Shown here: positions 15,161 through 43,527 of the stretch, in pieces | Layout of the letters: each line of letters opens with the position of its first letter | Numbering within the stretch: the first letter of the stretch is position 1 | Source: an uncultured bacterium | Lineage (GTDB): Bacteria; Zixibacteria; MSB-5A5; UBA10806 | Assembly: GCA_965541585.1 (NCBI GenBank) | Contig: CBEUCH010000004.1 | Location: 1-64,000, forward strand | Direction of reading: 5' to 3' | Length of the DNA stretch: 64,000 nucleotides | Made by a program: the position numbers and the translations under genes | Notes under the pieces: model-generated | The model's database searches: none | What the model was told of the DNA's origin: nothing | Seen by the model: the letters and a program-made list of their open reading frames with translations, nothing else

Positions 15161-15169
15161 TTAGGAATT

Positions 15170-18488: not shown

Positions 18489-18512
18489 CATCACCGAAAG
18501 AATTTTTATTCA

Positions 18513-18534: not shown

Positions 18535-18545
18535 AAATATTTGCA

Positions 18546-18631: not shown

Positions 18632-18647
18632 GTAGGTTACCCAGTCG

Positions 18648-26152: not shown

Positions 26153-26434
26153 ATGAGGGAGATTCTACAGGCAGTGTTAATATGCAAAGGATCATTTAGT
26201 GTGTGGTTTTGTAATTATAGGAGAAAATGATTCGATTTGGAAATTATAAAGACTTGAAGATTGTTCGACGTCGGGTTGAGATGCAGATACGCAGGAAGGT
26301 TTGCACTCTGCTCTTGATCCTTGTTGACATCGACTCTTCGGTCGATTATAGTGCTGTGAAAATGCGTTTTGTAATATCACGTTGGATTGTCGCTGTAAGT
26401 AAAACATAATCATCGTTAGAAACAGGAGGTTTAA

Positions 26435-26860
26435 ATGTCAGCACCATTTAGAATTCGTCGATCCGATGCTCGACTGGAGAAAGTATCGGCAAAAAAAAGT
26501 GAGGGATTTAAAGATTATCTCGAGCGCCTGATAAAGATGATTCCGGGTGAAGTTATTGGTCTTTATCTGATTGGGAGTGGTTTCATTCCGAAAGATCAAC
26601 ATGCTGGATTACTTATTTGGTCAATTATCTGTCTGATTGGCGTGGTTGCCGTTCGTGCATACGGAACAACCGATTCAGAGGAAAACCTGCCGCCACAATG
26701 GAGCGTCGTAATCATTTCGTCAGTAGCGTTTGTGATTTGGATTTATTCGTTTGGAGGGGTGTTTAAACTATACGGCTTGCATGTTCCATATATCGGATCA
26801 TTACTTGTATTGGCGTGGACATTTTTTGTACCGATTGTCTACAAGGGAACTTACGATTGA
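26435..26860 (+). CDS. Small 4-TM membrane protein of unknown function
   Basis: AGGAGG RBS; basic N-terminal tail, YLERLIKMIPGEVIGLY, four hydrophobic segments. Confidence 0.75.
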   Translation: MSAPFRIRRSDARLEKVSAKKSEGFKDYLERLIKMIPGEVIGLYLIGSGFIPKDQHAGLLIWSIICLIGVVAVRAYGTTDSEENLPPQWSVVIISSVAFVIWIYSFGGVFKLYGLHVPYIGSLLVLAWTFFVPIVYKGTYD

Positions 26861-26908
26861 TGTTACACGGGGCTTAGCGAGTCGAGCAACAAACTGAAAA
26901 AAATCATT

Positions 26909-29900: not shown

Positions 29901-29998
29901 CCGCCGGCCAGGAAGCCGGCCGTGCCCTGGCCATGAGTGAGGAAATGGATTATTATTGGGGCAAGAAGGACGCGAACGAAATTCTGGCATTAGTCTGA
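26909..29998 (+). CDS. Trypsin-like protease - STAND NTPase - TPR protein
   Basis: TCAHVV / DLVLL / GMSGA triad; GFGGEGKS Walker A, LFVLDGLE Walker B, LITSR, GHAITL, HPLIR; C-terminal TPR-like helices. Confidence 0.88.
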   Translation: MADGSITQKLRDFTVQIRHTKTDEIVGTGIAISLDGRIVTCAHVVMAAGVNPRLGKRIPGNWEMVVKSILKGKADPLIETKEAEIGVFVPKAKGEKKERRAKVTACFKDHDDDLVLLQLVGKPPPLAPEQIPVLAKADLSEGNPFSSYGYCPLGARKASRASGEIMGDIEVTSGEKLQADPIQLRSGEIDHGMSGAAVLDTKRNLIVGIIAETYYPKNISKHSQVGWAIDAKVLTFDPLKVQFNGDESLPLRESAKLSKDVMSQAEKSIVRDLSLTDYPAPSPLSEWVGREDLLKQLNQDWNDADTKVVGLIGFGGEGKSSLAGKWIADLLKDPKQKRPDGLFWWSFYDRRSVDEFFEAALTYLSRKNENLLKDFKTPNTRAKLIAGMLYSGDYLFVLDGLEVMQKQEGDDYGEFGSDDLRQFLEYFSAPGHSSFCLITSRAPVFDLMDHTTFIHRDVDRLSDDEGCALLKKVGVKGAESDLKKAVEQWDGHAITLSLIGAYLAKTHNGDIAHLNDIEPPTADEPRYERVHRILRRYDEHLTDDERAFLQLFSAFRTPVEESAFDKVFRTKTKENALNAPIAALNDAEFKALVKRLQNYRMLRHDPQENHYTTHPLIRAHYFTLLSQRASSQTQKTHEQIKDYYLSVAGEVPHHPTLEDLIPLIEVVHHACQAGAYDEAFRVYWVRIYQLDRKVLIHELGAYETDLALATQFFSAGDTSQEPQVSDPRYKSYILNDVGLCLMSLGRLSDAVPFFERMVKGYLAEDELAFASAGYRNLANLYADLGRLADSGQAAGEALQLARRAADKKTELNSLGYQAWAAHLSGDLETAGTAFQQEEDIEREVDSNKLYLYSLNGIQHADHLRRMGKADYARRVTKANLKICEKAHWADDISKCKRVLGDLEADAGVHERAGQHYENALKIARNITRQDVLIEALLARGRWQAKQAAQTKEHTSLQQAFSDLNEALGYATKGGFRIYEADIRVALAWAHLADEQQKPAGQEAGRALAMSEEMDYYWGKKDANEILALV

Positions 29999-30111: not shown

Positions 30112-30765
30112 TCAGGGTGAGAGGCGAAAATCCACCGTAACAGTATCTCCGGCCTTCACATCAATCACATCTGACTGCTCCTTCAGCTTCCCATGCCACG
30201 TAAGGAGAGTGTACTTGCCCGGCGGTACATCCTCGATAGAGTATTTGCCGTCCGGCCCCGTCAGTGAAAAGAACGGGTTCTGCAGAACAACAATGAACGC
30301 GGACATCTCACGGTGGACATTGCATAAGAGAGAGACGACTCCGGTATCGTCAAAAGTAATGTCACGAATACCCCCATAACCCCATGTACCGATATTGAAT
30401 GGTTTTGTTTTAGACGGTGAGAAAATATTATGATCAAAACTATCACTGTTGGCAAACTGAACCGTGGTCCCGACCAGAATCGGCATTACGTGCGGAACGA
30501 AGACCCTGTTGATTTGATCAAGGACCGGCTTTATACTGTCCGGCTTGAAATTCCCCTCTACCTTTTCCAGATATACAATCACATCTCTGGCGTCTCTGAT
30601 CCCTCTTGCTGATACAGTCCCGGTTATCGTGCATTTTTCGATATTCCGGGCGATCGAGGTTATTGCTTTTCCACTATCAGGGTCGTTGTCGGCCACCGCG
30701 TAGCTGCCAAAAGCCATCAAACAGAAGATCAACGTTAATAGTATCATAATGAAATCACTCCTCAC
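30112..30765 (-). CDS. Periplasmic cupredoxin-like protein with carboxypeptidase-regulatory-like flanks (copy 2)
   Basis: Signal peptide; DHNIF and CNVHREM provide His..Cys-x2-His-x2-Met type-1 Cu ligands. Confidence 0.75.
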   Translation of the reverse strand: MRSDFIMILLTLIFCLMAFGSYAVADNDPDSGKAITSIARNIEKCTITGTVSARGIRDARDVIVYLEKVEGNFKPDSIKPVLDQINRVFVPHVMPILVGTTVQFANSDSFDHNIFSPSKTKPFNIGTWGYGGIRDITFDDTGVVSLLCNVHREMSAFIVVLQNPFFSLTGPDGKYSIEDVPPGKYTLLTWHGKLKEQSDVIDVKAGDTVTVDFRLSP

Positions 30766-30877
30766 TTTTATGGTATTCGCTAATTATCCAATGGTTCCTG
30801 TGAGCATCGACGCTGCCTGTAATCCCTTTTACATCGGACAGTCCCGCTGTGAAACTCTTGCAGTCCGATGCCGGACT

Positions 30878-32293
30878 TCAGAAGGCAAATAAGACATTTA
30901 ACTTTATCCACTTGAGACTTTCACTGTTATCTGCCTCGACAGTATTTCCCGCGTTATCCGATTTATCTCTATCGATCTTGATGAAGCTCTCAATCGTGAG
31001 TCGGACATTCTCGCGAGCCAGCACCGTTACGTTGGGAGAAACCGTAAAATACTTGTCAAGATCGTTGTCATTCTGTTGAGAACTCACACCGCCAAGCCGA
31101 AAACCAGCGATCAGCCAGGGATACATGAGGTAATAGGTCTCTCCAAACCATGCCGTACTACTAATTTTTTTTTGATTCTCTGTCCCGGCCAGCATTGCGT
31201 TCGGGTTGTTGTCATCACCCGTGATAACGCCTGCATAGAAGTCGAGACGGCTGCGATTCAGGTGCAGATCAATGCCGTACCTGACGAAGTCATTATCTAC
31301 ATTTGTCCGTTGCTCGATCGAATCGGTCGGCGGAATCTGGATCCAGCTAACGTCTTCTCGCGTGTCGCTCCCATAGTAGATGTAGACTCCAGCAGTGATG
31401 GAATTGTCCATCCAATATTCCGTCTGTCTGGGTTCGGCCGACTCTTGAGACCGATAGCCGTCAAGCCCCAGCCTGCCAAACTTGATTGCCAGCCTGCTAT
31501 AGAAGTCCTTCTCGTCCGTTCTATCATCCAGCACTTTGCCTTCACCATTTACAACGCCAATAGCATACTGGTAGCGGTGATTTACGATTCCATTGATTTC
31601 GATGCCGGATTGTTGGTCCCTGGGGCGCCACTTGCCGGTGGCTTTGTAATCAAGCGTGGTAGCGTGTTCCAGCATGACCCTCTGATTGTCAACCAGACCT
31701 TCTGTAATACCAGGTTCTATTCGGCCTAACCTGATGTTGAAAGCATTCTCAGTACCAACGAGATCGTTTAACTGGAAAAAGAACCGTTTAAGTCCGATGG
31801 CATTCTCGCCATGTTCAAACAATACAAACTCCCCGAAAAAAGAAAAGGTCTTGTCAAAGGTGCCGCCGAACAAGAGTTCGAGTTCATGGGGCATGTCAAA
31901 TTCGATCTGATTGCCGCTCTTCGAAGCGCCATACTCAGTTATAAACCGCTGGTGGACATAGGCCGCGATTGGAAACTCTGCAGGCATCAAGCCCGGCCAG
32001 ATAGTATTGGGAAAGACTTCCTTCCAGGTTTCTGCACCCAACTCAATCGGATCCTGTTTGATTTGCGCCTTTTCCTGATCTGGCATAAAATACCCGTTTC
32101 TTCGAAATGCCTCGCCAAAGGCATTGCGTTTAGGGATAGCCACGTGACATGTAGTACAGGTCGTCTTGTACTTTCTGGCAAACGCCGGGATAGCCGCCGC
32201 ATCCCTGCAAAACATTATGATTACCAGCACAGCAAAGAGCACAATCGCGCACCGGCCAAAAAGTGCAGTATGATTCATAGTATTGTTTTGCAT
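30878..32293 (-). CDS. Cyc2-like monoheme cytochrome c - porin fusion (copy 2)
   Basis: AIPAFARKYKTTCTTCHVAIPKRNAFGEAFRRNGY after the signal peptide, then a beta-barrel ending LFAF. Start uncertain (32293, 32278 or 32350). Confidence 0.8.
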   Translation of the reverse strand: MQNNTMNHTALFGRCAIVLFAVLVIIMFCRDAAAIPAFARKYKTTCTTCHVAIPKRNAFGEAFRRNGYFMPDQEKAQIKQDPIELGAETWKEVFPNTIWPGLMPAEFPIAAYVHQRFITEYGASKSGNQIEFDMPHELELLFGGTFDKTFSFFGEFVLFEHGENAIGLKRFFFQLNDLVGTENAFNIRLGRIEPGITEGLVDNQRVMLEHATTLDYKATGKWRPRDQQSGIEINGIVNHRYQYAIGVVNGEGKVLDDRTDEKDFYSRLAIKFGRLGLDGYRSQESAEPRQTEYWMDNSITAGVYIYYGSDTREDVSWIQIPPTDSIEQRTNVDNDFVRYGIDLHLNRSRLDFYAGVITGDDNNPNAMLAGTENQKKISSTAWFGETYYLMYPWLIAGFRLGGVSSQQNDNDLDKYFTVSPNVTVLARENVRLTIESFIKIDRDKSDNAGNTVEADNSESLKWIKLNVLFAF

Positions 32294-32629
32294 GAGAACC
32301 GCTTTAAGCCGTCGCCCGGTTAATCCCGCGAGCGACCCGGCGAATCGCAAAAATCAAATTGCCTCGTAAAGACTACTATGCCGCAGAGCGATACCATTAC
32401 TGCCGGTGGGTTAGCTACATCATTCCACACACTATCCAACCCTTAGAATGGCTCCAATCTCATCCGGGCAAACCATACACCCGGGCAATCAAAACGGTAT
32501 TAACCCGGCGTCTATTTGTCAAGTTCTATCGGGCGTTGATCCTACGCTCGCTCCGGTTTTTTGGCTACTCTCACGGTTGCCGTTCTTCAACTTCTGTCCG
32601 GGTATCAGATGCCCGTGACCGCAGAGGAT

Positions 32630-33055
32630 TCATTCGCTACCGATCCTGGAAAGGTACATGACGTAGTAGCTGGCATTTTTGATATCCGTGTCCGAAAGTG
32701 TCTTTCCCCATGCAGGCATTAGATGAGAAAATCCGACCGCTGCGCCGCCCGAGGATATTGTTTCTTCTATCAGGGCGCTATCCAGTCGTGCCTGATAACT
32801 TGAGTCCGCAAAATTCCTCGGCCTGGGATCAAGATTGTAAGCATTAAATCCATCTCCTCTGCCTTCGGCCCCGTGGCAAATCGAACAGTATTTTCCGTAG
32901 ACCTTTCTGCCATTAGCAAGATCGCTATCCACAATCTCCTCAAAACTATTTGCGGTTTCCAGCACAAGATCCCGCTGCGGTGTTTCCTGTTTCGAGCATG
33001 AAAAGAGAAAAACCAGTATGGCCATGGCTGTTAATGTGTTGCTGACAATTCTCAT
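32630..33055 (-). CDS. Monoheme cytochrome c lipoprotein
   Basis: LFSC lipobox, CSICH, MPAW distal Met. Confidence 0.88.
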   Translation of the reverse strand: MRIVSNTLTAMAILVFLFSCSKQETPQRDLVLETANSFEEIVDSDLANGRKVYGKYCSICHGAEGRGDGFNAYNLDPRPRNFADSSYQARLDSALIEETISSGGAAVGFSHLMPAWGKTLSDTDIKNASYYVMYLSRIGSE

Positions 33056-35043
33056 TTTTTCCCCTTCTTCATAGCCATCAGAGCTGCGGTGATTTGCCTT
33101 GATTCGATATCGGAGAAGCCAAAATCAGGCTGAATAGTGGCCGGCCTGTATTTTTGAGGGTCTATCATCCAGCTATACACCCAGCCTGCTTCCAACCGGT
33201 TCCCGCAGTCATCAAGCGTCGGACCAAGGTAACCGCCGTTACCATCAATAATGTGGCAGTTCACACATTGCAGAGAATCAACAATGCGCCTGCCTGTCTC
33301 GACATCAGTCGGTTCAAACTCGTATTCAAAAAACCTGGGGATATCGTCACTTATATACACTTTTTTGATGTACTCGGCCATGAGAGATGCTTCTCTTTCA
33401 GTCATCCTGAAATGAGGCATTCGTTCCGGAAGTATCGGCCGGACGGCATATGGGCGGATGAGATAATCCCTCAACCATTCGAATTTGACTATACTTCCTT
33501 CAATTGTCAGGGGCACCGTGGAGATTGTACCCCCGTACCTGTCAATTGAGTGACAACTAATGCAACTATATTTCTCGAATAATTCGCCAAACTCGCCGGC
33601 CGGTTTCTTATAAAGAGACTTTTCAGATTCTTCAACAAGATGTTTGGCAGAATAATTTTTTCCCTTGTTGCCGAGCATAGCGATAGTTATTTCAAATGCC
33701 TCTTTCTCCGTAAAGTAGAAATTAGGCATAATGCTCGTAGAATCGAAAACGTCAGGCTGTTTCAATTTCATAAAAATCCAGTTGTAAAGGGTCGGAACAA
33801 TATCATCATAGCCTCCGAAATTCAAGCTCGATTCCAGGCGATCGCCGATATTGGACAGCTTGGGTCCTATTTTGATGGATTTGTTTTCCCCGGCAATGTT
33901 ATGGCATCCGCCGCAGCCGTATTTTTTGAATAGTCTCTCCCCATGCCGAATCTGCTCCTGTATTCTCGAAGAGGATATTGGTATATCGATTTTAACGGTA
34001 TCCCCGGGGAAAATATATTCATCCTCGGAAAATTCCTCGATTAAATAAGCCGCAATATCAAGAGCGTTCTGATTGCTGAAATAATATTCCAGCATCTTCT
34101 TTTCGGGTTGGTAGTAATGCACGTTTCGCACGAAGTTCGGAAGCCAGATCTCCCTGGCCTTGTCGCCGATTCTTTCGAGTTCCGGGGCAAAGTTTCCACC
34201 CCGGCCATGTATATTGTGACAGGTTATACATCTTGATTCGCTTACGAGGATCTTACCGGAATCCTCATCTCCCACTCCGGATGGCAGCCGGTCAATATAA
34301 ATCGGAGGTGAATTCTTCCCATCGAGACTCATTAGAAATTCGACGAGATCATAAATATCCTCATCATTGAACCGGAACGACGGCATACGAGAATTACTCA
34401 GATAATCTTTCGGATTTTTCAACCAGTGGAAAAGCCAGCCCCTGGTAACCTTGTTACCAATACCGTCCAGATCAGGTCCATTGGTTTCCTCCTCAAAAAA
34501 GCGGTTAATGTCATGACAGCCGGTACAGCCTCTGTCCTTGATGAGGAGTCTCCCATCCGTAAGAATATTCGCTTCAGGTACCTCCTCGGATTGATGGCAA
34601 GTACCACAGGAAGCCTGGATCAACTCGCGCGGAAGCATTGTCTCGTTCCAGAAGTCAAGCTTGTCATGCGCCGCTTTCTCATACGATACTGCATATCCCT
34701 GCCCGAAATGGCAGGAAGTACAGCCGAAATCTTTGCTTTTATGGATACTTAACAGATTTCCCGGATGGGTATTGAATGGTGAGGGAGCTTTTCTATATTT
34801 ATTGCTCTCGATGCCGAGATGGCAGGTTGGACAACGGTCCACTATACCTAAGCCTTCCACTACAATCTGCTTTATCCCGGGCTTGACCGAGGAGCCGTCT
34901 TTTGTCATAGAGTAAAACCTGTTTTCATCAATTTCTGAAAAATCGATCTGGACCCGCTTCCATTCCTGATTGAAATCATCAACAAGGATTAGAATAAAGC
35001 TGATGAAAAGGAAAACTCCCGATATGTAAATCCAGCGTTTCAT
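33052..35043 (-). CDS. Membrane-anchored octaheme cytochrome c
   Basis: N-terminal TM; 8 CxxCH (CPTCH, CTSCH, CGTCH, CTGCH, CITCH, CGGCH, CISCH, CVNCH); several class-I-like MP motifs. Confidence 0.92.
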   Translation of the reverse strand: MKRWIYISGVFLFISFILILVDDFNQEWKRVQIDFSEIDENRFYSMTKDGSSVKPGIKQIVVEGLGIVDRCPTCHLGIESNKYRKAPSPFNTHPGNLLSIHKSKDFGCTSCHFGQGYAVSYEKAAHDKLDFWNETMLPRELIQASCGTCHQSEEVPEANILTDGRLLIKDRGCTGCHDINRFFEEETNGPDLDGIGNKVTRGWLFHWLKNPKDYLSNSRMPSFRFNDEDIYDLVEFLMSLDGKNSPPIYIDRLPSGVGDEDSGKILVSESRCITCHNIHGRGGNFAPELERIGDKAREIWLPNFVRNVHYYQPEKKMLEYYFSNQNALDIAAYLIEEFSEDEYIFPGDTVKIDIPISSSRIQEQIRHGERLFKKYGCGGCHNIAGENKSIKIGPKLSNIGDRLESSLNFGGYDDIVPTLYNWIFMKLKQPDVFDSTSIMPNFYFTEKEAFEITIAMLGNKGKNYSAKHLVEESEKSLYKKPAGEFGELFEKYSCISCHSIDRYGGTISTVPLTIEGSIVKFEWLRDYLIRPYAVRPILPERMPHFRMTEREASLMAEYIKKVYISDDIPRFFEYEFEPTDVETGRRIVDSLQCVNCHIIDGNGGYLGPTLDDCGNRLEAGWVYSWMIDPQKYRPATIQPDFGFSDIESRQITAALMAMKKGKK

Positions 35044-35055
35044 TCCATCTCCGAT

Positions 35056-36306
35056 TTACCAGGGCCACACGAAGTGCCAGTTTTCTCCCCGGAAGAAAGT
35101 ACCGATAATAATTAGAATCACCATGGCAATCACGAATACGCCAAACAGGATATTTTGACGTTTTCTATATTTGGAGAACCAGATACCGGTGCCCTTTCCC
35201 TTGGAATCAATGTAAGGAAGAATTACCAGGCCGACCACAATCAGGAAAGGCAATAGTACCCCTCCCAGAAAAGCCGAGTAATGCACTAGCTCCTGCAGGC
35301 CGAGAAAATACCATGGCGCTTTCGCAGGATTCGGTGTAACTGTCGGATTTGCCTGTTCCTCGAGAGGGGCATTGAAGTAGACCGAGGCAATATTCAAAAG
35401 GGCTATAACGATTACGGTAGCAAGCAGTTCCTTGGGTATCAGATGGGTCCAGGTGAAAACAAAGTTCTCCGGATTTTTCTCGGCTGTAATTTCAGTTCCG
35501 TTGGCCACGCTCATCAGGCCATATGTTTTTGTTGGCGATTCGGTAACGCTTTGTTTTATGGTTGTGTCTGTATTTTCAGGTCCTGATATCCCGCCGTCTT
35601 TTCTAATCCTCCAGAAATGAATTGCCAGTGCGGCAATAGCTAATGAAGGAAGGACGAAGCAATGGAATACATAAAACCTGATAAGAGCACCCTGCCCGAC
35701 AATATTCCCGCCAAGCAGAAGAAACTTGATTTTCTCACCGATAACAGGCGCGTAGCTGGCCATGCTGGTGCCCACCGTAATCGCCCAGAAAGCCAGCTGA
35801 TCCCACGGTAACAGGTAACCGGTAAAGCTCAGTCCGATAGTAAAAAGAAAGAGGGATACCCCGACAACCCAGTTAAACTCTCGAGGTTTACGGAACGAGT
35901 AAGTAAAGAAAACTCGGCACATGTGCAAGAATACTGTTACAACCATTGCATGAGCGGCCCAGCGGTGCATATTCCTCAGGATTCGGCCATAGGATACTAC
36001 CATCTCGATATCCTTGATACTCTGGTAGGCTTTTTCGGTTGATGGGATATAATAAAAGGCCAGGAGTATTCCAGTGACGACGAGCACCAGGAATAGCAAA
36101 AACGAGATCCCCCCCAATCCCATGGTGTACCAGAACCTGACGCTGTCTTTGCGTACCTTGACCGGGTGAAGATGAAACGCAACATTGCTGGTGATAGCCA
36201 GCGACCGGTTCAGGTCGTTATCGACTTTTCCATGACGGAAAAATGATTTCCAGACCCTGCTTTTTACAAGCCAATCTCTGGTCTTTTGATATAACTGCGC
36301 CATCAA
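35056..36306 (-). CDS. Cytochrome b of a Rieske/cytb complex (b6 + subunit IV-like regions in one chain)
   Basis: [27 protein letters not shown] heme ligands; KAPWYF in place of PEWY. Confidence 0.93.
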
Positions 36307-36797
36307 GCCATCAGCCTGAAGTTTTTGTCCACTTCTTTCCGGGTGTTTACCTGAAGCTTATCGTCGCTGGTTAAGGTCAATTCATACCACTTTAATGGCT
36401 TTGGAGCGGGCCCGCTGATAGTCTTACCGTTTTTATCAAAAGTCGAACCATGACAGGGACAATCAAATCCTATCCTGTCATCGTTCCACATGACATTGCA
36501 TCCGAGGTGGCTGCATATCGATGAGACGGCGTAAAATCCCTCCTGCGTGCGGAAAATAAACAGACGGCTTTCATCAAGAAAAGTTACCGAGTCGGCAGGG
36601 AAATCCTCAATGCCGCCTACAGTGAATATTGTGGGGGGTTCGTATAAAACATTAGGAAGCATAAACCGCATCGTAGACACTACAATTCCCCCCAGGCCGG
36701 CAAAAAAGCTGAATTTACCGAGGGTCTCCAGGAATTTCCGCCGTGAACTTCCCGTCTTGCTGTCCCGGTTGCCGTTTTCAGGCATTGGTGTATTCAT
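36303..36797 (-). CDS. Rieske [2Fe-2S] protein
   Basis: SRRKFL Tat anchor, CSHLGC and CPCHGS. Confidence 0.95.
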
Positions 36798-38586
36798 TAA
36801 ATAGGATTTTCTCCATCGTTATGGTTTGCGTAGGACATCTTTTGGCACACTGGCCGCATCTAATACATGACGTTTCATCTTTAATAATGGCAAAACGCTT
36901 ATCATCCAGAACACTTGATTCCCCGGCCTGTTTGCCGGTTACCTTCAACTTTGCCGGATCCACTATTCGCAGGCAGTCAAACGGACAGACATCGACACAA
37001 CCCCCGCAGAGAATACACTTATCGCTGTCGAATATGGTATTGATATTACACTTCAGGCAGCGAGAAGCCTCCATTCGAGCTTCTTCATCTGAGTACACCA
37101 TCTCCACCTCGCTGAAGCCGGTACGGCGGTCGACCTCGATCTGGGGAATCTCAACTCTCTTTGAAGATTCAAAGCCTTCGGGCATGGTATATTTCGAGGT
37201 GTCCATCATCCGGAAATAATAGGCTTGATTGGGGAGGCTTTTAGGATCAATATAATTCATAATCGATCTGGCGGCCCGTTTGCCGTTGGCGACAGAGTCG
37301 ATAACGATCCTGGGGCCGAATACTGCATCTCCACCGGCGAAGACACCCGGGATATTGGTTTCCAGCGTATCAGGATCTGCTTTTATATTACCGTTGGGAT
37401 TTAAGTAAAGGTTTTCGTCGAGAGTAAAAGAACCCGGGTCAACCTGTTGGCCGATAGCCATGATAACTGTGCCGCCATCGATAACTGACTCAGTGTTTTC
37501 CAGAAAAGTCGGATTGAATCTACCCTCACTGTCGAAAACAGACAGGACATCAAGCACCTTCAAACCGATGGCACTTCCGGCGCGGCCGAGGATTTCTCTG
37601 GGACCTCTGGAAGTGTGAAAAACAACGCCCTCAGCCTTCGCCTCGTCGATCTCATAGCGATGGGCCGGCATTTCCTCCCATGATTCCAGGCAGACAACGT
37701 GCACTTCCTTGGCTCCCAGGCGCAAGGCGGCGCGGGCGGCATCGATAGTGGCGCTGCCATCGTCAGTCTCAGAATCGCTTTCATCTCTTATCGCGGAACG
37801 GGCGATATCAATGGCCACGTTTCCACCACCGATCACGATCACGCGGTCGGCAAGGTCAACTTTGTAACCGAGGTTAACGTTGATCAAAAAATCGATACCA
37901 TTGATGACACCATCAAGATCGCTGCCGGGAATCGCGACACCTTTGCTCTTGGAGGCTCCAATACCCATAAATATCGCTCTGTAGCCCTGGTCTTTTAATG
38001 TCTGGAGTGAAAAATCCCGGCCCAATGCCCACCCGGTTTTTATTTGCACGCCGAGATGCAGTACCCGCTCGAACTCCATCCTGATCAAGTATCGTGGCAG
38101 GCGGTATTCCGGAATACCGAGATAGAGCATGCCACCGACTACACGAGTTGATTCGAAAATGGTTACCTCATAACCGTTAAGGGCAAGATAATATGCGCAT
38201 GAAATACCCGAGGGTCCGGCGCCTATTACAGCAACCTTGATACCGTTTGACGGTGGCCGTTTTCTTGGCAGATACTTTTTCCCCGATTCCGGACCGAATT
38301 TTTCGCAGGCAATACGTTTTAAGGCTCGGATAGAGATGGGGTTGTCGATATCACCGCGCCTGCAAACTGACTCACATGGATGAGCACAGACCCGGGCGCA
38401 GATAGAGGCCAGGGGATTGGGAGCGGCTGCAACCTCATACGCCTCATTGAGGTTACCGTCCGCAATCGCCTGTACGTAGCGGCCGGCATGAGTGTTTACC
38501 GGACAGCCTTTCCGGCAGGGAATCAGATCCAGGTAATATTCGAGATCTGGAATAACGACATTATATGTGTCTTTTTGTTGGGGCAT
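36778..38586 (-). CDS. FAD/FeS NAD(P)-dependent oxidoreductase (GltD/NfnB/DsrL-like) with C-terminal ferredoxin
   Basis: CRKGCP, CARVCAHPCESVC, GAGPSG, GGGNVA, FAGGD, CLKC, CILCGGCVDVCP, CIRCGQCAKRCP; no signal peptide. Confidence 0.9.
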   Translation of the reverse strand: MPQQKDTYNVVIPDLEYYLDLIPCRKGCPVNTHAGRYVQAIADGNLNEAYEVAAAPNPLASICARVCAHPCESVCRRGDIDNPISIRALKRIACEKFGPESGKKYLPRKRPPSNGIKVAVIGAGPSGISCAYYLALNGYEVTIFESTRVVGGMLYLGIPEYRLPRYLIRMEFERVLHLGVQIKTGWALGRDFSLQTLKDQGYRAIFMGIGASKSKGVAIPGSDLDGVINGIDFLINVNLGYKVDLADRVIVIGGGNVAIDIARSAIRDESDSETDDGSATIDAARAALRLGAKEVHVVCLESWEEMPAHRYEIDEAKAEGVVFHTSRGPREILGRAGSAIGLKVLDVLSVFDSEGRFNPTFLENTESVIDGGTVIMAIGQQVDPGSFTLDENLYLNPNGNIKADPDTLETNIPGVFAGGDAVFGPRIVIDSVANGKRAARSIMNYIDPKSLPNQAYYFRMMDTSKYTMPEGFESSKRVEIPQIEVDRRTGFSEVEMVYSDEEARMEASRCLKCNINTIFDSDKCILCGGCVDVCPFDCLRIVDPAKLKVTGKQAGESSVLDDKRFAIIKDETSCIRCGQCAKRCPTQTITMEKILFNEYTNA

Positions 38587-38596
38587 CTTTGCCCTT

Positions 38597-39205
38597 TTAT
38601 CTATTGAGTTTGAATTCTCTCTCAATAGTACCCTTTTCGGAAACTTCCACGGCCTGCGATTCGGCTTTCAATTTCGGATGCCACACTTTCAGAGTGTAGC
38701 TTCCTTCGGGGACATTGTCAATTTGAAAACTTCCCGAGTCATCCGCCATGGAAAAGTAAGGACTTTCCATTATCACCACGAAGGCTTCCATTTCCGGGTG
38801 AACATTACAGAGCATGACCGCATCGCAAACCTTATCGCACCTTTTCTCAAAAGTAAATGACCTTATTTCGCCTGCCGGCCATGTACCCAGGTTAAACTTA
38901 TCAGCAGACTTATCAGGTGTAAACACATTATGTGCAACTTCGTCGCTATTTAGAAAGTCTACGGTGGTCCCTGCCAGGACCGGAAGTATGTGAGGGATGA
39001 ATACCAGGTTTTTCTGATCCATAACTTCGTGTTTTGCGGGTGCTTTGAATTCGCCCTGTATGCCCTCGATATAGATCAGGGTATGCGGCAGATATTTGCT
39101 TTTTTTAGCTGTTATCTTGCCCTTAATTGTACCTGCCTGAATAGGAATCCATGTCAGAAAACTGGCAATCAGCATGGCGACCGTTAACAGCCTGATATTT
39201 CTCAT
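38597..39205 (-). CDS. Periplasmic cupredoxin-like protein (copy 1)
   Basis: Signal peptide; AHNVF and CNVHPEM; paralog of 30112-30765. Confidence 0.75.
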   Translation of the reverse strand: MRNIRLLTVAMLIASFLTWIPIQAGTIKGKITAKKSKYLPHTLIYIEGIQGEFKAPAKHEVMDQKNLVFIPHILPVLAGTTVDFLNSDEVAHNVFTPDKSADKFNLGTWPAGEIRSFTFEKRCDKVCDAVMLCNVHPEMEAFVVIMESPYFSMADDSGSFQIDNVPEGSYTLKVWHPKLKAESQAVEVSEKGTIEREFKLNR

Positions 39206-39335
39206 ATCATCTCCTCATCCGTTTCCACATTTAGAATTAATCCAAGGCATAATCCGGGGGAGTTTCCGCACCGGTAACATCGGCTTGCCTGCCGAATATC
39301 CAGAATCTTTAACCCTCTACGGGCTGGTTTTGTTC

Positions 39336-39499
39336 TCCCCCGGGTAGCGCATTCCTTTTTTGTTAAATGCCTTGCCAAAGCCGTTAAGGCGAGGATAGGC
39401 TTAGTGGCAGGTGCTGCAACTGGTCTTGTACTTTCTGGCGAAAGTCGGGATAGCATTTACGGTCCCCGCCAGTAAAGCCGCCAGGAACAAGCAGGCCAT
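39336..39499 (-). pseudogene. Tandem partial duplicate of the cyc2-like 5' end (32-aa ORF 39401-39499)
   Basis: MACLFLAALLAGTVNAIPTFARKYKTSCSTCH*AYPRLNGFGKAFNKKGMRYPG; DNA closely similar to ~40595-40753. Confidence 0.8.
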
Positions 39500-40782
39500 T
39501 AAATTGAGAAATTAAACTGAATCGTTAGTCTATCATCGTCCTCGCGAGCCTCGTCAAGGGGCTTCCGGTATTCCAGAGAACATTTTACATTTGCCCGGAT
39601 CATAACGATCACAGCCGGCACCAACGTAGTCTGCGGATCGGGATCATCAAGATCGGTGTCTCTGTCGACAAACTCATAACGCGCCTGCCCTATTAACCAC
39701 GGGAAGACTACATAATTGAGCTCGCCGAACCAGGCCAGCGACGTTCTTTCCACAGCGTCATAGTCGGATTTCATTTGCATGAAAAGACCTACGACATTGA
39801 ATTTATCATACCAGAAATCGATATCTCCGCCAAAAACGGTGAAATCATCTTCCAGCGTATCTTTAACGGCGCTGCCTGAGTAAGCGAATCCTCCTAAACG
39901 TACAGAATTGTCTATGTAAAAGGCTGACTCCGAACTCTCCTGCCCTTCGGTTCCGCCTATTTCGCCGAGGCCGCCTATCTTATAGGTGCCCCTGGCGTAA
40001 AAATCTTTTGATGTATTCAGATCGAAATTATCCTCATCATTCTGGCCGTTACCTATACCGACGGCATAAGTGAAGCCGCCCTGACCACCAGATCCGTTAC
40101 CGGCGCCCCATAACTCCAGGCCACCGCCGGCGCCACTCCGCATCCTCCAGGTTCCGGATTGATTTCTGAGATCCTCAATTGCGTAATGTTCTCTGGTTAA
40201 TCTGTGATGTTCGGGACTGACAGTAAGCCCCACCGAACCGGCTTTAAGATGAATCCTTGGGCTGAAATCATATTGCAGGGCGAATTCGTAGGCCAACTCA
40301 GTCTCATGTTCTAATTCAACCTCTCCGAAATAGGAGATTTTGTCTCCAATAGTACCTGCAAACAAAAGTTCGAATTCGTGGGGTATTTCAAATGTCATTC
40401 CCTTATCCTCTTCAACCTCGCCTGTGGTTGTAGGATCATCCCATTTTCCCCCGTAATGGATACGTCCGAACGCGTGAACTGATAAGGGAGAAGTGCCGGC
40501 GATATCTGCGGGCCAAATGGCGTCCGGCCAGACCTTCTTATAGCTTTCAGAGCCAAGGCTTACGGGTTCTTCTTTCGTAAAGTTCTCGTCGCCCCCTGGA
40601 TACCTGAATCCGTTGTTCGCGAACGCCTTCCCAAATCCGTTTAGTTTCGGATAGGCATAGTGGCAGGTGCTGCAACTGGTCTTGTACTTTCTGGCAAATG
40701 TCGGGATTGCCTTTGTAGTCCCCGCCAGTAAAGCCGCCAGGAACAAGCAAGCCAGAACTGCTCCACAGTAGACTTTTTTCAT
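39499..40782 (-). CDS. Cyc2-like monoheme cytochrome c - porin fusion (copy 1)
   Basis: AIPTFARKYKTSCSTCHYAYPKLNGFGKAFANNGF, then a beta-barrel ending QFNFSI; AAGGAGG RBS. Confidence 0.82.
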   Translation of the reverse strand: MKKVYCGAVLACLFLAALLAGTTKAIPTFARKYKTSCSTCHYAYPKLNGFGKAFANNGFRYPGGDENFTKEEPVSLGSESYKKVWPDAIWPADIAGTSPLSVHAFGRIHYGGKWDDPTTTGEVEEDKGMTFEIPHEFELLFAGTIGDKISYFGEVELEHETELAYEFALQYDFSPRIHLKAGSVGLTVSPEHHRLTREHYAIEDLRNQSGTWRMRSGAGGGLELWGAGNGSGGQGGFTYAVGIGNGQNDEDNFDLNTSKDFYARGTYKIGGLGEIGGTEGQESSESAFYIDNSVRLGGFAYSGSAVKDTLEDDFTVFGGDIDFWYDKFNVVGLFMQMKSDYDAVERTSLAWFGELNYVVFPWLIGQARYEFVDRDTDLDDPDPQTTLVPAVIVMIRANVKCSLEYRKPLDEAREDDDRLTIQFNFSI

Positions 40783-40827
40783 TGTACCTCCTTAAACGTT
40801 TAATGCTAAAACACTTCCGATTGGTTA

Positions 40828-40843
40828 AGCAACAAACATGCCA
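40828..40843 (-). promoter_or_regulatory. Sigma54 (-24/-12) promoter
   Basis: TGGCATGTTTGTTGCT matches TGGCAC-N5-TTGC(A/T), 45 nt upstream of the cyc2-like ATG. Confidence 0.85.
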
Positions 40844-40913
40844 TTTACAGCGCCTGATAACTGCTTGGATAATCGGCAGTTATGGGACGGGGAAAATACC
40901 CGGCTTGTTGAAT

Positions 40914-41013
40914 TGTAACATATCATTACATTCACAATGGTGGTAGTCGTTTTAAGGCATTAGGATTCAAAAGGATAGAAATTATTTCAAGTAATTTGTA
41001 ATGAATCGTTACA
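40914..41013. promoter_or_regulatory. Two upstream activator palindromes TGTAA-N7-TTACA
   Basis: TGTAAcatatcaTTACA (40914-40930) and TGTAAtgaatcgTTACA (40997-41013), upstream of the sigma54 promoter. Confidence 0.7.
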
Positions 41014-41014
41014 G

Positions 41015-42379
41015 TTACAGATCTTTGATATCGTATTGGTCGATCTTCTTATAAAGCCGCGGGCGAGAAATTCCTAATATCTCTGCCGCCTTAGATTTAT
41101 TGCCGTTGGATTCTTTGAGAGCCTTGATTATCAGATCTTTTTCAGCTTCTGAGAATGAGGGCACCGATGTCGCTTGTTTTCCACCATGATCAGGTGCGCT
41201 GGTTATGTTTGCAGGCAGGTCTTTGGAAGTGATAATCTCCGCAGCTCTCTCCGCAAACAGACGCTCGACCAGGTTTTCCAATTCTCTGATATTACCGGGC
41301 CAGCGGTATTTTGCAAGCATGTTCAGGGCATTGTCATCAAAAGCCTTAATTTTGAAATCATGGGTCTGGTTGCCTTTATCCAGGAAGTACTGCAATAAAC
41401 CGACTATTTCATCGCTTATTTTCCTCAATGGAGGGACATCGATAGGAATAACGTTCAATCTATGATAGAGATCCTCTCTCAGCAACTTCCGGGAAAGCGC
41501 ATTTTGCAGATCAGTATTAGTGGCCGCAATAAACCGAACGTCAATCTTTAATTCTTCGACAGAGCCGACGGGCCTTATGGATCTTTCCTGGATTGAGCGC
41601 AGAAGCTTGGCCTGCGTACCGGGTTGCATCTCCACCAGCTCATCCAGAAACAGTGTTCCGCCGTCGGCGGACATCATTAAGCCCTCATGATCCTGGCCGG
41701 CGCCGGTGAATGCGCCTTTCCTGTAGCCGAACAATTCACTTTCTATCAATTCGCGGGACAGGGCGCTGCAGTTTATGGCAACAAACGGCCCTGAAGTCCT
41801 ACGGCTGTTTTTATGTATAGCCGTGGCGAAGAGTTCTTTGCCGGTGCCGCTTTCCCCGGAGATAAATACAGAACAATCACATCGGGCCGCCGATGTGATT
41901 CTGTCATAAACCTTCATCATAAGGGCATTGCTGAATACATACCCATCCAACTGAAGATCATGAGTTACTATTTTTTTTAACTGTTGAACCTCATTCTGGA
42001 GTTTCCAGATCTTATAGACCTGTTGAATTGAATTGAGCAATTCACTTTTATTGAAAGGTTTGGTGATATAATCGGTGGCGTTATCCTTGATTGCCTTTAC
42101 GGCCGATTCAATTGAGCCGTAGCCGGTCATTATGATGACCTCGATCGCAGGGTTAATCGCTTTGACCTCCTGCAATAATTGCGTACCGTCCTTGCCGGGC
42201 ATTTTCAGGTCGGCAACAACCAGGTTAATGTCATTTTTGGAGCTTATTGTTTCAAGGGCTTCGTCTGCAGATCCCAGAGCCTTAACGTGATAACCCCGGC
42301 CGGCAATTACCCTGGCACAGGTTTCGGCATAATCGATATCATCATCGACCACCAGTATTTTGAAATCACTTTCACTCAT
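41015..42379 (-). CDS. Sigma54-dependent response regulator
   Basis: VVDDD/DLKMP receiver, GESGTGKE, GAFTGA, WPGNIREL, Fis HTH. Confidence 0.95.
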   Translation of the reverse strand: MSESDFKILVVDDDIDYAETCARVIAGRGYHVKALGSADEALETISSKNDINLVVADLKMPGKDGTQLLQEVKAINPAIEVIIMTGYGSIESAVKAIKDNATDYITKPFNKSELLNSIQQVYKIWKLQNEVQQLKKIVTHDLQLDGYVFSNALMMKVYDRITSAARCDCSVFISGESGTGKELFATAIHKNSRRTSGPFVAINCSALSRELIESELFGYRKGAFTGAGQDHEGLMMSADGGTLFLDELVEMQPGTQAKLLRSIQERSIRPVGSVEELKIDVRFIAATNTDLQNALSRKLLREDLYHRLNVIPIDVPPLRKISDEIVGLLQYFLDKGNQTHDFKIKAFDDNALNMLAKYRWPGNIRELENLVERLFAERAAEIITSKDLPANITSAPDHGGKQATSVPSFSEAEKDLIIKALKESNGNKSKAAEILGISRPRLYKKIDQYDIKDL

Positions 42380-43527
42380 CAGGCCACCGGAAAGTATAGC
42401 TTAAATGATGCCCCTTCTCCCATATTGCTTTCTACTTCGATCCTGCCATCATGTTCAAGGATAATTTTCTTGCATAGAGCCAGCCCCAAGCCGGTACCTT
42501 CCGGCCCCGCCTTTGTAGTAAAAAATGGATCAAAAACTTTATCAATATGATCAGCCGGAATTCCCGGACCATTATCCGTAAATGTGACGGCAACCTGGTT
42601 CAACAAAAGATCTTTGCCAATTTGAATATCTATTTTACCATTTTTACCTATTACATGGATTGAATTCGAAAAAAGATTGAAGAACAGTTGCTCAATCTGA
42701 TTTTCATTACAGAAAATCTCCGTATCCTTTGTTTTTATATCAATGTTCAATGCAACGTTGTACTTTTTCAATTCGATTTCGACAAGACTTTTAACTTTAT
42801 TTATAATTGATTCGATATTTTGTTTTTTCCTGACAGGTTCCTCTTTCTTTACATAGGCGAGCAATTGCTTTACAACATTCGAGCAATGCTCTGCCTGGCG
42901 TTTGATCATGTCGACCTCTCCGGTCATAGACTGCGGGATATCTGTATCATTCAAAATATCGGCAGAAAGAATGATGGAGCCAAGCGGGGTGTTCAGCTCA
43001 TGGGCTATCCCGGCGGCGATCTGGCCGATATTTGTCAGCCTTTCGATTCGTCCCGGATCAGCCCTTAAATGGCTTTGCTCTCGTGTTTGTCTAAAAATAT
43101 TTATCAGGCCGATAACCTCGTTTCTGTTGGCAATAATCGGAATGACCGTTAACGCCATCTCGCGGCTATCCTCACCGGCAACAACTTTCGTTTCGAAATC
43201 AAAAACAGGCTTTTTCTCACGGGTGACATATTTTAATATGCTTTTATAGTCGTATCTGCATTGTTCAGCTATAGCATTTTCAAATGACGTTATCGGTTTT
43301 TTTGTACTGTTTGATTTAAACGATTTTTCAAACAAATCAGACGTTGATTCTATGGTCCCGGCGGGATCCGTTATCGCTGCCAATGCATCATAATGTTTAA
43401 GAATATGCTCCGTTTTCAGCTTTTCTTTTATATACTCCGATTGGCGACGGCGCGAATATTGCAGGAAAAGAAATATTGCAATAGACATGGCCAGAATCAG
43501 AAAGATGATTATTGGATAAACGTTCAT
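42379..43527 (-). CDS. Sensor histidine kinase (TM - PAS-like - HisKA - HATPase)
   Basis: AHELNTP, NLFSN, DNGPG, PFFTTK, GTGLGL; 1-nt overlap with the regulator. Confidence 0.93.
   Translation of the reverse strand: MNVYPIIIFLILAMSIAIFLFLQYSRRRQSEYIKEKLKTEHILKHYDALAAITDPAGTIESTSDLFEKSFKSNSTKKPITSFENAIAEQCRYDYKSILKYVTREKKPVFDFETKVVAGEDSREMALTVIPIIANRNEVIGLINIFRQTREQSHLRADPGRIERLTNIGQIAAGIAHELNTPLGSIILSADILNDTDIPQSMTGEVDMIKRQAEHCSNVVKQLLAYVKKEEPVRKKQNIESIINKVKSLVEIELKKYNVALNIDIKTKDTEIFCNENQIEQLFFNLFSNSIHVIGKNGKIDIQIGKDLLLNQVAVTFTDNGPGIPADHIDKVFDPFFTTKAGPEGTGLGLALCKKIILEHDGRIEVESNMGEGASFKLYFPVA

Follow-up and report, generated by a model that had tools for sequence, protein, structure and literature searches.

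In an uncultured bacterium from sediment, one locus has the appearance of a full route for electrons between the cell exterior and the cytoplasm, and the question it raises is whether its parts belong to one chain and which way electrons would run through it. Hereafter, the window is the whole stretch of DNA analysed (64,000 nucleotides). ORF coordinates and translations place eleven genes at 30112–43527, all on the minus strand and in exactly the order listed in an earlier note on this DNA; the co-directional run from histidine kinase to cupredoxin #2 is thus present as claimed. The genes and associated features, in the direction of transcription, are as follows:

42379–43527, minus strand: sensor histidine kinase (HisKA 46 bits, HATPase_c 89 bits)
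41015–42379, minus strand: sigma54-dependent response regulator, REC + AAA+ + HTH_8 (Sigma54_activat 215 bits, Response_reg 90 bits, HTH_8 54 bits)
40828–40843, minus strand: predicted sigma54-type –24/–12 promoter TGGCATGTTTGTTGCT; the start codon of Cyc2 #1 follows 45 bp further downstream
39499–40782, minus strand: Cyc2-type fused monohaem cytochrome-porin #1, 427 aa (AIPTFARKY-KTS-CSTCH-YAY-PKL, single CxxCH)
39326–39502, minus strand: decayed partial copy of a cyc2 5′ end, covering the signal peptide through the haem motif (CSTCH is immediately followed by an in-frame stop)
38597–39205, minus strand: secreted cupredoxin #1, 202 aa (AF2 model, structure and profile matches)
36778–38625, minus strand: cytoplasmic FAD/FeS NAD(P) oxidoreductase (Fer4_20, Pyr_redox_2, 2× Fer4; NF009410 456 bits)
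36303–36797, minus strand: Rieske [2Fe-2S] subunit (Rieske 52 bits; twin-arginine signal SRRKFL)
35056–36306, minus strand: cytochrome b6 fused to subunit IV, 416 aa (Cytochrome_B 158 bits, Cytochrom_B_C 36 bits)
33052–35043, minus strand: membrane-anchored octahaem cytochrome c, 663 aa (8 CxxCH, N-terminal hydrophobic helix)
32630–33055, minus strand: monohaem class-I cytochrome c (Cytochrome_CBB3 41 bits)
30878–~32293, minus strand: Cyc2-type cytochrome-porin #2 (AIPAFARKY-KTT-CTTCH, one CxxCH)
30112–30765, minus strand: cupredoxin #2 (39% identical to #1, same invariant ligand columns)

From cupredoxin #1 to the monohaem cytochrome, neighbouring genes overlap or are separated by at most ~12 nt; the flavoprotein gene overlaps the Rieske gene by 20 nt, the monohaem gene overlaps the octahaem gene by 4 nt, and the end of the kinase gene overlaps the regulator start by 1 nt. 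Wider gaps lie before Cyc2 #1 (232 nt), after it (293 nt) and before Cyc2 #2 (~340 nt). The decayed cyc2 copy is 78% identical to residues 9–69 of Cyc2 #1 and contains one TAA (translation and DNA alignment). An 84-aa ORF at 39202–39456 was rejected as a gene; it overlies this copy.

Passages of Keffer et al. 2021 (PMC8406198) define Cyc2 by AxPxFAR[Q/K][T/Y] before and PxL after a single CxxCH, a signal peptide, a length of at least 365 aa, and a 16-strand beta-barrel resembling OprO/OprP. Judged by this published sequence signature, both barrels of the locus are of the Cyc2 type, with PxL in #1 only. AxPxFAR[K][Y] stands three residues before CxxCH in each of them, while the PxL position reads PKL in #1 and PKR in #2 and in a paralogue on contig C25 of the same genome. 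Hydrophobic, signal-peptide-like N-termini were found by inspection (…TTKA preceding IP in #1, …DAAA preceding IP in #2), and residues 2–19 of #1 are helical in its AF2 model; for #2, candidate start codons (ATG) lie at 32293 and 32278. The haem-motif residues C37, C40 and H41 are invariant across 23 aligned Cyc2 homologues. No Pfam or NCBIfam family matched Cyc2 #1, and its AF2 model (pLDDT 70.7, haem domain below 50) has 16 strands, with Foldseek matches to the 16-strand porins OmpF, PorB and OprP 2o4v (TMq 0.54). The description of the barrels as Cyc2-like in the earlier note therefore agrees with the motifs of both proteins and with the predicted porin fold of #1. Cyc2 #2 is sister to the C25 paralogue (support 100/99) within a 10-row clade, and the Cyc2 proteins of the locus are only 32–34% identical to the retrieved Chlorobiaceae homologues.

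Both copper proteins are amicyanin-like cupredoxins with a His/Cys/His/Met type 1 ligand set, as expected from their initial description as blue-copper proteins. The AF2 model of cupredoxin #1 (pLDDT 92.9) contains a cupredoxin domain flanked by strands of a carboxypeptidase-regulatory-like beta-sandwich; it superimposes on amicyanin with an rmsd of 1.5–2.7 Å over ~90 residues (TMt 0.72–0.75), other structural matches being the C-terminal cupredoxin of NirK, plastocyanin and pseudoazurin. Profile matches to cupredoxins range from 4e-6 to 5e-3. The ligands H92, C133, H136 and M139 are invariant in 29 aligned sequences, and the CxxHxxM and H[ND][VIL] motifs are found in 62 of 63 homologues, the lone exception (178 aa) lacking CxxHxxM. 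Cupredoxin #2 shares 66% identity with its counterpart at the C25 locus.

The inner-membrane part of the locus resembles the NAD(P)-linked Rieske/cytochrome b complexes of anammox bacteria, a likeness that had also been proposed at the outset. The best PDB match of the Rieske subunit is 9rk4 (86.9 bits, where the highest-scoring b6f Rieske reaches 66.9 bits), which is Kuste4569 from such a complex and has a measured potential of +303 mV (PMC12954380). The flavoprotein, which has no signal peptide and probably starts at an ATG ~13 codons inside the listed ORF, combines a GltD/NfnB-type module with a C-terminal 2× ferredoxin domain and has four predicted [4Fe-4S] sites. Its closest PDB entries are the NfnB/GltD-like modules 9bov, 8oh5 and 9n5u, and its nearest named relatives come from Zixibacteria (72–74% identity) followed by Scalindua (51–54%). 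Cytochrome b scores 289 bits against the NCBIfam family ExtP (cut-off 290) and 82 bits against ExtQ. The octahaem protein consists of an N-terminal tetrahaem part and four class-I domains (Cytochrom_C 110 bits, with c7/c3/NrfB-like matches), and its match to ExtS (81 bits) falls below the curated cut-off. The monohaem cytochrome is probably a lipoprotein, to judge from its lipobox-like N-terminus (…FLFSC), and matches cytochrome 579 weakly (28 bits, cut-off 280).

The locus is under predicted sigma54-dependent two-component control, with an enhancer-binding response regulator and a candidate –24/–12 site at the target. The kinase has a single N-terminal membrane helix and is without a periplasmic sensor domain. 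TGGCATGTTTGTTGCT is the sole –24/–12 pattern match inside the locus; over the whole window the pattern is not enriched (2 found, 3.9 expected). Of the 61 related loci with at least 3.5 kb of upstream sequence, 38 have a comparable regulator gene that ends no more than 2.5 kb before Cyc2. Among relatives, enrichment is confined to the relaxed –12 element: TGGCAY-N5-TTG occurs upstream of Cyc2 in 12/80 related loci compared with 47/3541 background windows, while the strict sigma54 consensus was found in 0/81 related upstream regions. The site upstream of Cyc2 #1 fits the suggestion that the module is self-regulated.

Conservation of the arrangement was assessed in the 38 related loci whose sequence continues for at least 9 kb past Cyc2. 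In 31 of them Rieske and cytochrome b genes follow Cyc2, in 35 the octahaem gene, in 28 the monohaem gene and in 27 the flavoprotein gene; a cupredoxin gene lies after Cyc2, within 2.5 kb, in 58 of 67 loci. Three flavoprotein orthologues stand closest in the host phylum (74, 71 and 52% identity), and all of them are encoded directly downstream of Cyc2 matches on the same contigs. The arrangement is far beyond chance, since dozens of unrelated MAGs have their genes in this order too. Cyc2, cupredoxin and Rieske/cytochrome b keep one shared order across many phyla, and the barrels are thus co-conserved with the Rieske/cytochrome b genes; absence of such a link was what the earlier note had named as evidence against its proposal. 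In some loci the position of the inner-membrane complex is taken by an ACIII-like module (annotated in L015, with the same gap in four more loci), and in some others by a Rieske/cytochrome b complex without the flavoprotein. At the level of gene content, the constant theme is a Cyc2–cupredoxin pair beside a predicted quinol:cytochrome c oxidoreductase. As to the module being possibly mobile, its patchy cross-phylum distribution is the only sign in favour; no mobility genes were seen in the flanks of the locus.

Our tentative reading, to which we give a little less than an even chance, is that one sigma54-controlled operon encodes an envelope-spanning electron chain that oxidises an Fe(II)-type donor, carries electrons inward and exchanges them with NAD(P). 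Outer-membrane Cyc2 would take one electron from a soluble donor outside the cell, most probably Fe(II), and pass it, through contacts that we infer between successive parts, to the secreted amicyanin-like cupredoxin and then to the periplasmic c haems of the membrane-anchored octahaem and the lipoprotein monohaem cytochromes. From this high-potential pool electrons would run downhill to a haem-copper oxidase, and the pool would also exchange with the quinone and NAD(P) pools through the inner-membrane Rieske/cytochrome b6–subunit IV complex. The NAD(P)/FAD/four-FeS flavoprotein, placed at the cytoplasmic face of that complex, may let it split the two electrons of quinol as in the anammox proposal, one returning to the high-potential pool and the other being raised to NAD(P)+. 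The quinol could come from a second Cyc2-linked Rieske/cytochrome b complex of this genome, which is encoded on contig C25 without a flavoprotein and might be reversed by the proton-motive force. We count in favour of this inward chain the Cyc2 signature, the modelled 16-strand barrel, the cupredoxin fold and ligands, synteny, module swapping, gene packing, the likeness to Kuste4569 and the precedent of Cyc2 as an Fe(II) oxidase: iron oxidation was shown for Acidithiobacillus ferrooxidans Cyc2 and Leptospirillum Cyt572 (PMC7029218), and is supported for the PV-1 Cyc2 in passages of PMC8406198. The genome also encodes one haem-copper oxidase, outside the operon, as a sink. We count against it the missing PxL of Cyc2 #2, the lack of the strict sigma54 consensus in relatives, and a paralogous flavoprotein-linked Rieske/cytochrome b complex of the same genome that adjoins a molybdopterin oxidoreductase gene. 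Furthermore, what is thermodynamically favoured for an NAD(P)-linked Rieske/cytochrome b complex is to oxidise quinol and release electrons to a high-potential acceptor, which is the opposite periplasmic flow. RuBisCO, the only carbon-fixation enzyme searched for, is absent from the genome (98% completeness), which leaves no evident demand for NAD(P)H obtained from Fe(II).

Several of these points suit the same chain running outward, which we consider somewhat unlikely but a serious contender. Quinol from organic matter would be oxidised by the Rieske/cytochrome b complex, one electron leaving by way of the octahaem cytochrome, cupredoxin and Cyc2 to reduce a soluble species of high potential outside the cell, for instance chelated Fe(III) or Mn(III), and the other being driven up to NAD(P)+ as proposed for anammox. 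The anammox model has the multihaem side as the favourable acceptor branch, and the potential of the homologous Rieske protein agrees with this (PMC12954380); the absence of RuBisCO and the sister complex beside the molybdopterin oxidoreductase gene point the same way, as does the fact that ACIII-like modules, ordinarily quinol oxidisers, can stand in for the complex. However, every Cyc2 tested so far is an Fe(II) oxidase according to PMC7029218 and passages of PMC8406198, and with just one haem in its narrow pore Cyc2 could deliver electrons only to a soluble acceptor whose potential lies above that of the chain itself, of which the sequence gives no indication.

That Cyc2–cupredoxin and Rieske/cytochrome b are co-regulated but work in parallel, both feeding one periplasmic high-potential pool drained by a terminal oxidase or reductase encoded elsewhere, appears unlikely. 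Domain searches of the locus and its flanks found no terminal oxidase in the operon, one haem-copper oxidase is encoded elsewhere, and the gaps flanking Cyc2 #1 and preceding Cyc2 #2 exceed those within the Rieske/cytochrome b block. Yet the cupredoxin gene is tightly packed against the flavoprotein gene, and Cyc2 clade and kind of inner-membrane module go together: within the 10-row type-b clade, the flavoprotein is missing from C25 and from L074–L076, the three loci reaching as far as inner-membrane genes. Because of this match between clade and module, direct functional pairing fits better than a shared pool.

It is doubtful that the substrate of the chain is something other than iron, namely Mn(II)/Mn(III), humic quinones or reduced sulfur species. 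Passages of PMC9040806 propose Cyc2 for Mn(II) lithotrophy in Manganitrophaceae and passages of bioRxiv 653014 discuss alternative roles for Chlorobia cyc2, but iron is the sole substrate shown for any Cyc2 in PMC7029218 and the relevant passages of PMC8406198, and nothing in the locus positively suggests another. Least credible, and very improbable, is that the barrels are ordinary solute porins with a chance haem motif and functionally meaningless respiratory neighbours: the general 16-strand porin fold and the missing family match would allow it, but the cytochrome motif is invariant across the 23 homologues, and most loci keep the link to cupredoxin and to Rieske/cytochrome b or ACIII-like genes.

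Full-text searches and passages of papers returned no description of this combination of parts, and we compared it with four known systems. The cytochrome b and octahaem proteins resemble ExtP, ExtQ and ExtS of the Geobacter Ext b-type cytochromes, all below curated cut-offs. The Geobacter Ext cluster adjoins an outer-membrane conduit; that system uses multihaem porin-cytochrome conduits, neither Cyc2 nor cupredoxin.

With the Kuenenia stuttgartiensis complexes Kuste4569-4574 and Kustd1480-1485 the locus shares a b6-type cytochrome b with subunit IV, a multihaem cytochrome c (octahaem here) in place of cytochrome f/c1, and an FAD/four-FeS NAD(P) oxidoreductase encoded in the operon. It differs in the fusion of b6 and subunit IV, in its periplasmic partners, which are a cupredoxin and an outer-membrane Cyc2, and in its host, which is not an anammox bacterium. 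Domain searches found no HAO-like octahaem partner (Kuste4574 type) in the locus; Kustd1480-1485 likewise has none, and quinol bifurcation has been proposed for the anammox complex (PMC12954380).

The A. ferrooxidans rus (cyc2-cyc1-cox-rus) and petI operons follow the same logic, combining Cyc2 at the outer membrane with a cupredoxin in the periplasm, c cytochromes and a Rieske/cytochrome b complex, and petI (cycA1-sdrA1-petA1B1C1; PMC10654088) has an NAD-related accessory gene, sdrA, in the Rieske/cytochrome b operon. Here, by contrast, a single predicted operon without oxidase genes is found, the cupredoxin is amicyanin-like rather than rusticyanin, and the NAD(P) protein is a GltD/NfnB-type FeS flavoprotein rather than a short-chain dehydrogenase.

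The known Cyc2 proteins (A. ferrooxidans Cyc2, Leptospirillum Cyt572 and Mariprofundus Cyc2PV-1) share with those of the locus the signal peptide, the single CxxCH, AxPxFAR[K][Y] and a length above 365 aa, and with #1 also PxL and the 16-strand OprP-like barrel (AF2 model). In contrast to them, loci of the present type are hosted by Zixibacteria, FCB-group and Acidobacteria MAGs, and the gene following Cyc2 is almost always a cupredoxin rather than a Cyc1- or c5-type cytochrome.

ORF listing, translation and scans against Pfam and NCBIfam bore out the layout proposed in the earlier note: eleven co-directional genes occupy 30112–43527 on the minus strand, in the order histidine kinase (HK), sigma54-type response regulator (RR), Cyc2 #1, cupredoxin #1, NAD(P)/FAD/FeS flavoprotein, Rieske protein, cytochrome b, octahaem cytochrome, monohaem cytochrome c, Cyc2 #2 and cupredoxin #2. 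The HK gene overlaps the RR gene by one base, and the RR combines REC, sigma54 AAA+ and HTH_8 domains. In the block bounded by cupredoxin #1 and the monohaem cytochrome c, neighbouring genes overlap or are spaced by at most ~12 nt; wider gaps lie before Cyc2 #1 (232 nt), after it (293 nt) and before Cyc2 #2 (~340 nt). The gap after Cyc2 #1 contains the following feature:

39326–39502, minus strand: decayed cyc2 5′ end, directly after the Cyc2 #1 stop codon

This remnant is 78% identical to residues 9–69 of Cyc2 #1 and covers signal peptide, haem motif and the stretch between them, with a stop codon right behind CSTCH; it suggests that a second, tandem cyc2 gene has been lost. Three related loci (L067, L081 and L085) have Cyc2-Cyc2 pairs in tandem. 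An 84-aa ORF at 39202–39456, which overlies the remnant in another frame, was rejected as a gene. Two unusual plus-strand genes (within 23633–29998) converge on the end of the operon, one encoding an S8 peptidase that ends in an outer-membrane beta-barrel domain and the other a 1029-aa trypsin-like/NB-ARC/TPR protein of STAND type.

Neither Cyc2 #1 nor Cyc2 #2, predicted outer-membrane cytochrome-porins, has a matching family in Pfam or NCBIfam. Among 8000 candidates scored, 522 homologues were found at E ≤ 1e-3, every named match being a 'hypothetical protein', and the ESM Atlas returned only 'hypothetical protein' clusters plus one cluster with Porin_O_P in 12% of members. Alignment of 23 sequences revealed an invariant N-terminal block, A-I-P-x-F-A-R-K-Y-x-T-S-C-x-T-C-H...P-K-L-N-x-F-G. 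The available text of Keffer et al. 2021 (PMC8406198) defines Cyc2 by a signal peptide, one CxxCH preceded by AxPxFAR[Q/K][T/Y] and followed by PxL, a length of at least 365 aa and a 16-strand, OprO/OprP-like porin. Cyc2 #1 has all of these features, so its proposed Cyc2-like nature holds by that definition; for Cyc2 #2 the same proposal stands except at PxL, where PKR is found. The AF2 model of Cyc2 #1 has 16 strands (mean pLDDT 70.7, haem domain below 50), and Foldseek matched it to 16-strand porins, including OprP (2o4v, TMq 0.54). The family extends to Chlorobiaceae homologues at 32–34% identity, and a published FeGenie survey, in its available text, places Cyc2 in Ignavibacteriales and Zixibacteria MAGs (PMC8478452). 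FeGenie 'Cyc2' matches in these heterotroph-rich phyla should be read with caution, as they may not always denote simple iron oxidation.

The copper ligands of the cupredoxin (H92, C133, H136 and M139) are invariant in a 29-sequence alignment, and the CxxHxxM and H[ND][VIL] motifs occur in 62 of 63 homologues, the sole miss being a 178-aa protein without CxxHxxM. The AF2 model (pLDDT 92.9) superimposes its central domain on amicyanin with an rmsd of 1.5–2.7 Å over ~90 residues, and plastocyanin, pseudoazurin and the cupredoxin at the C terminus of NirK are further structural matches; a profile search recovered the same families from sequence. In the C-terminal part the strands are similar to beta-sandwiches of the carboxypeptidase-regulatory, NOMO and EMC7 kinds. 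Complex prediction for Cyc2 #1 (residues 24–427) with cupredoxin #1 (25–202) returned a score of 0.00 and gave no verdict. A fourth cupredoxin paralogue (45–48% identity) is encoded on another contig of the host genome (C18:39425–40038; L087 6425–7039), with no Cyc2 match within the 13 kb around it and with kinase and response-regulator genes upstream.

The closest solved structure to the Rieske protein is 9rk4 (86.9 bits, E 1e-23; the best b6f Rieske scored 66.9 bits). According to the available text of PMC12954380, 9rk4 is Kuste4569, the Rieske subunit (potential +303 mV) of the Kuenenia complex that contains an NAD(P) oxidoreductase. The window's Rieske protein carries a twin-arginine signal (SRRKFL), its cytochrome b is a fusion of b6 and subunit IV by Pfam and NCBIfam, and eight CxxCH motifs are present in the 663-aa octahaem cytochrome, which also has a membrane helix at its N terminus. 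The flavoprotein joins a GltD/NfnB module to two ferredoxin motifs and lacks a signal peptide; its nearest named relatives are from Zixibacteria (72–74% identity), followed by Scalindua (51–54%).

We analysed co-conservation by searching genome contigs with a profile built from the Cyc2 alignment, which found 241 relatives. The best 80 of the 241 loci were kept and compared by tblastn with the eleven window proteins (E ≤ 1e-8, query coverage ≥ 40%), gene counts being taken relative to the best plus-strand Cyc2 match of each locus. Within these best 80 of 241, a cupredoxin lies no more than 2.5 kb downstream of Cyc2 in 58 of the 67 loci with at least 900 nt of downstream sequence. Downstream sequence reaches 9 kb or more in 38 loci; of these, 31 have Rieske and cytochrome b, 35 the octahaem cytochrome, 28 the monohaem cytochrome and 27 the flavoprotein. 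Of the 61 loci with enough upstream sequence, 38 have a sigma54-type RR whose end falls within 2.5 kb of Cyc2 on the upstream side. Cyc2, cupredoxin and Rieske/cytochrome b recur together across MAGs, contrary to the lack of co-conservation that the earlier note named as a refuting outcome. The record labels include Ignavibacteriota, Bacteroidota, Calditrichota, Fidelibacterota, Zixibacteria, Eisenbacteria, Latescibacterota, Acidobacteriota, Gemmatimonadota and others, some submitter labels being plainly unreliable.

The misses among the 38 include two Chlorobiaceae loci (L070 and L073) and L007, which are without downstream module genes. Four others (L015, L021, L022 and L042), and also L043, carry ~7 kb of sequence separating the multihaem gene from the cupredoxin; L015 alone was annotated, and in it an ACIII-like set (c7-type cytochrome, molybdopterin-oxidoreductase-like protein, FeS protein and NrfD; 12022–19024) replaces the Rieske/cytochrome b and flavoprotein genes. 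The flavoprotein alone is absent from L067, L068 and L074–L076. In L009, the only one annotated of three loci with similar gaps (also L038 and L039), an insert at 12202–15443 separates cupredoxin from flavoprotein and encodes a Cupredoxin_1 protein, a 496-aa Fer4_5 protein and a cupredoxin/COX2-like domain fused to cytochrome c. Two Chlorobiota loci, from Chloroherpetonaceae/Chlorobium sp. MAGs (L081 and L085), have the order Cyc2-Cyc2-Rieske-cytochrome b-octahaem-monohaem-cupredoxin. This context differs from that in photoferrotroph Chlorobia, where the available text of bioRxiv 653014 reports a c5-family cytochrome as the neighbour of cyc2 and nothing else.

The host genome (3.52 Mb, 98% complete), which named best matches link to Zixibacteria, has a second locus on contig C25 (11850–20250; L086 5850–14252), with the order Cyc2-cupredoxin-Rieske-split cytochrome b-855-aa multihaem-monohaem and without the flavoprotein. 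Cyc2 #2 and cupredoxin #2 are most similar to the C25 pair (60% and 66% identity, respectively). In an IQ-TREE phylogeny of 77 Cyc2 rows, from which rows without P-x-[FW]-[AS]-R or with fewer than 330 aa after the motif had been dropped, Cyc2 #2 branches as sister to the C25 copy (support 100/99) within a 10-row clade; there the flavoprotein is absent from C25 and from L074–L076, the three loci reaching inner-membrane genes. Cyc2 #1 falls in a mixed-phylum clade of the same tree.

Within the phylum, Cyc2 is present in 6 of 151 genomes, the host included; the single genome of the host's genus that was searched (95% complete) yielded no Cyc2. With the flavoprotein as query, 16 of the 151 genomes gave matches at E ≤ 1e-100. 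The flavoprotein's three closest orthologues (74, 71 and 52% identity) lie directly downstream of Cyc2 on the same contigs; one genome of the phylum has a 48% homologue and no Cyc2 match, and ten genomes besides the host carry a full-length class of 40–44% identity. To this class belongs a paralogue on the window's own contig (C4:68867–70705, 44%), next to a paralogous cytochrome b (48%) and a few kilobases from a molybdopterin oxidoreductase gene (61626–63968); molybdopterin oxidoreductase and FeS genes lie within 57972–64000, and the cytochrome b and flavoprotein paralogues follow outside the window (C4:67090–70705). In five same-family genomes, the DUF418 flank gene had no match and the S8 peptidase flank gene one weak match, so that a clean insertion site is not definable; no mobility genes were seen in the operon flanks. 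The earlier suggestion of a possibly mobile module therefore stands solely as a patchy, cross-phylum spread.

The locus has a sole sigma54-type match, TGGCATGTTTGTTGCT (40828–40843, minus strand), 45 bp ahead of the Cyc2 #1 start, and no such site ahead of Cyc2 #2. The pattern is not enriched across the window (2 found versus 3.9 expected), and the strict consensus was found in 0 of 81 regions upstream of Cyc2 in related loci. A relaxed form, TGGCAY-N5-TTG, precedes Cyc2 by 51–146 nt in 12 of 80 loci versus 47 of 3541 same-strand background windows.

From the identities of the parts, their predicted locations, their conserved order and the promoter, we infer a mechanism whose simplest reading places Cyc2-cupredoxin in series with a quinol:cytochrome c oxidoreductase. 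Synteny and the tracking of inner-membrane module type by Cyc2 clade both argue for this connection. We tentatively favour inward, Fe(II)-type electron uptake through the chain. All Cyc2 proteins assayed so far are Fe(II) oxidases according to the available text of PMC7029218 and PMC8406198, which also speaks against outward flow; the layout parallels the rus and petI operons of A. ferrooxidans (petI order from the available text of PMC10654088), and the genome encodes one haem-copper oxidase. Outward flow through the same chain is a less probable, though still plausible, reading: the energetics of NAD(P)-linked complexes favour quinol oxidation towards a high-potential acceptor (PMC12954380, available text), no RuBisCO was found in the 98% complete genome, and a molybdopterin oxidoreductase gene neighbours the sister flavoprotein complex. 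Inward uptake could be reconciled with the energetics, speculatively, if the proton-motive force drove the flavoprotein-less C25 complex backwards, producing quinol that the flavoprotein complex would then bifurcate to yield NAD(P)H. That the outer and inner systems instead feed one shared periplasmic pool in parallel appears rather improbable, and a substrate other than iron decidedly so. It is very hard to see the barrels, which carry an N-terminal haem motif, as mere porins.

A broader reading, which we regard as possible but doubtful, is that the locus represents a widespread respiratory cassette shared by horizontal transfer, with Cyc2 and cupredoxin as its outer end and a fixed connection to a Rieske/cytochrome b complex that bifurcates electrons. 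Exchanging single electrons with extracellular iron, or with some other metal, would then power the reduction of NAD(P)+ directly, without recourse to reverse complex I. In that case, the kind of NAD(P)-linked Rieske/cytochrome b complex proposed for anammox bacteria would be a general module for varied periplasmic partners, here Cyc2-cupredoxin. Each part of the locus is of a known kind. The searchable literature, which does not include subscription papers and figshare supplements, yielded no description of a conserved union of Cyc2, cupredoxin and the anammox-type complex. The papers listed for the Kuenenia locus tags all concern anammox bacteria, and term searches within PMC12954380 retrieved nothing about homologues of the NAD(P)-linked complexes in other bacteria. 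A conserved operon with both systems in one predicted transcription unit offers a concrete, testable wiring diagram for two questions: how neutrophilic iron oxidisers pass electrons from surface Cyc2 on to their quinone and NAD(P) pools, and what role NAD(P)-linked Rieske/cytochrome b complexes play and whether any occur beyond anammox bacteria. As described in the available text of PMC12954380, the anammox complexes have a b6-type cytochrome b and subunit IV, a cytochrome c with six or eight haems replaces cytochrome f, and four FeS clusters lead to an NAD(P) oxidoreductase in the cytoplasm; NAD(P)+ reduction by quinol bifurcation is restated there as a proposal. The window locus resembles them in a Rieske protein nearest to Kuste4569, an octahaem cytochrome, b6 with subunit IV and an FAD/FeS flavoprotein.
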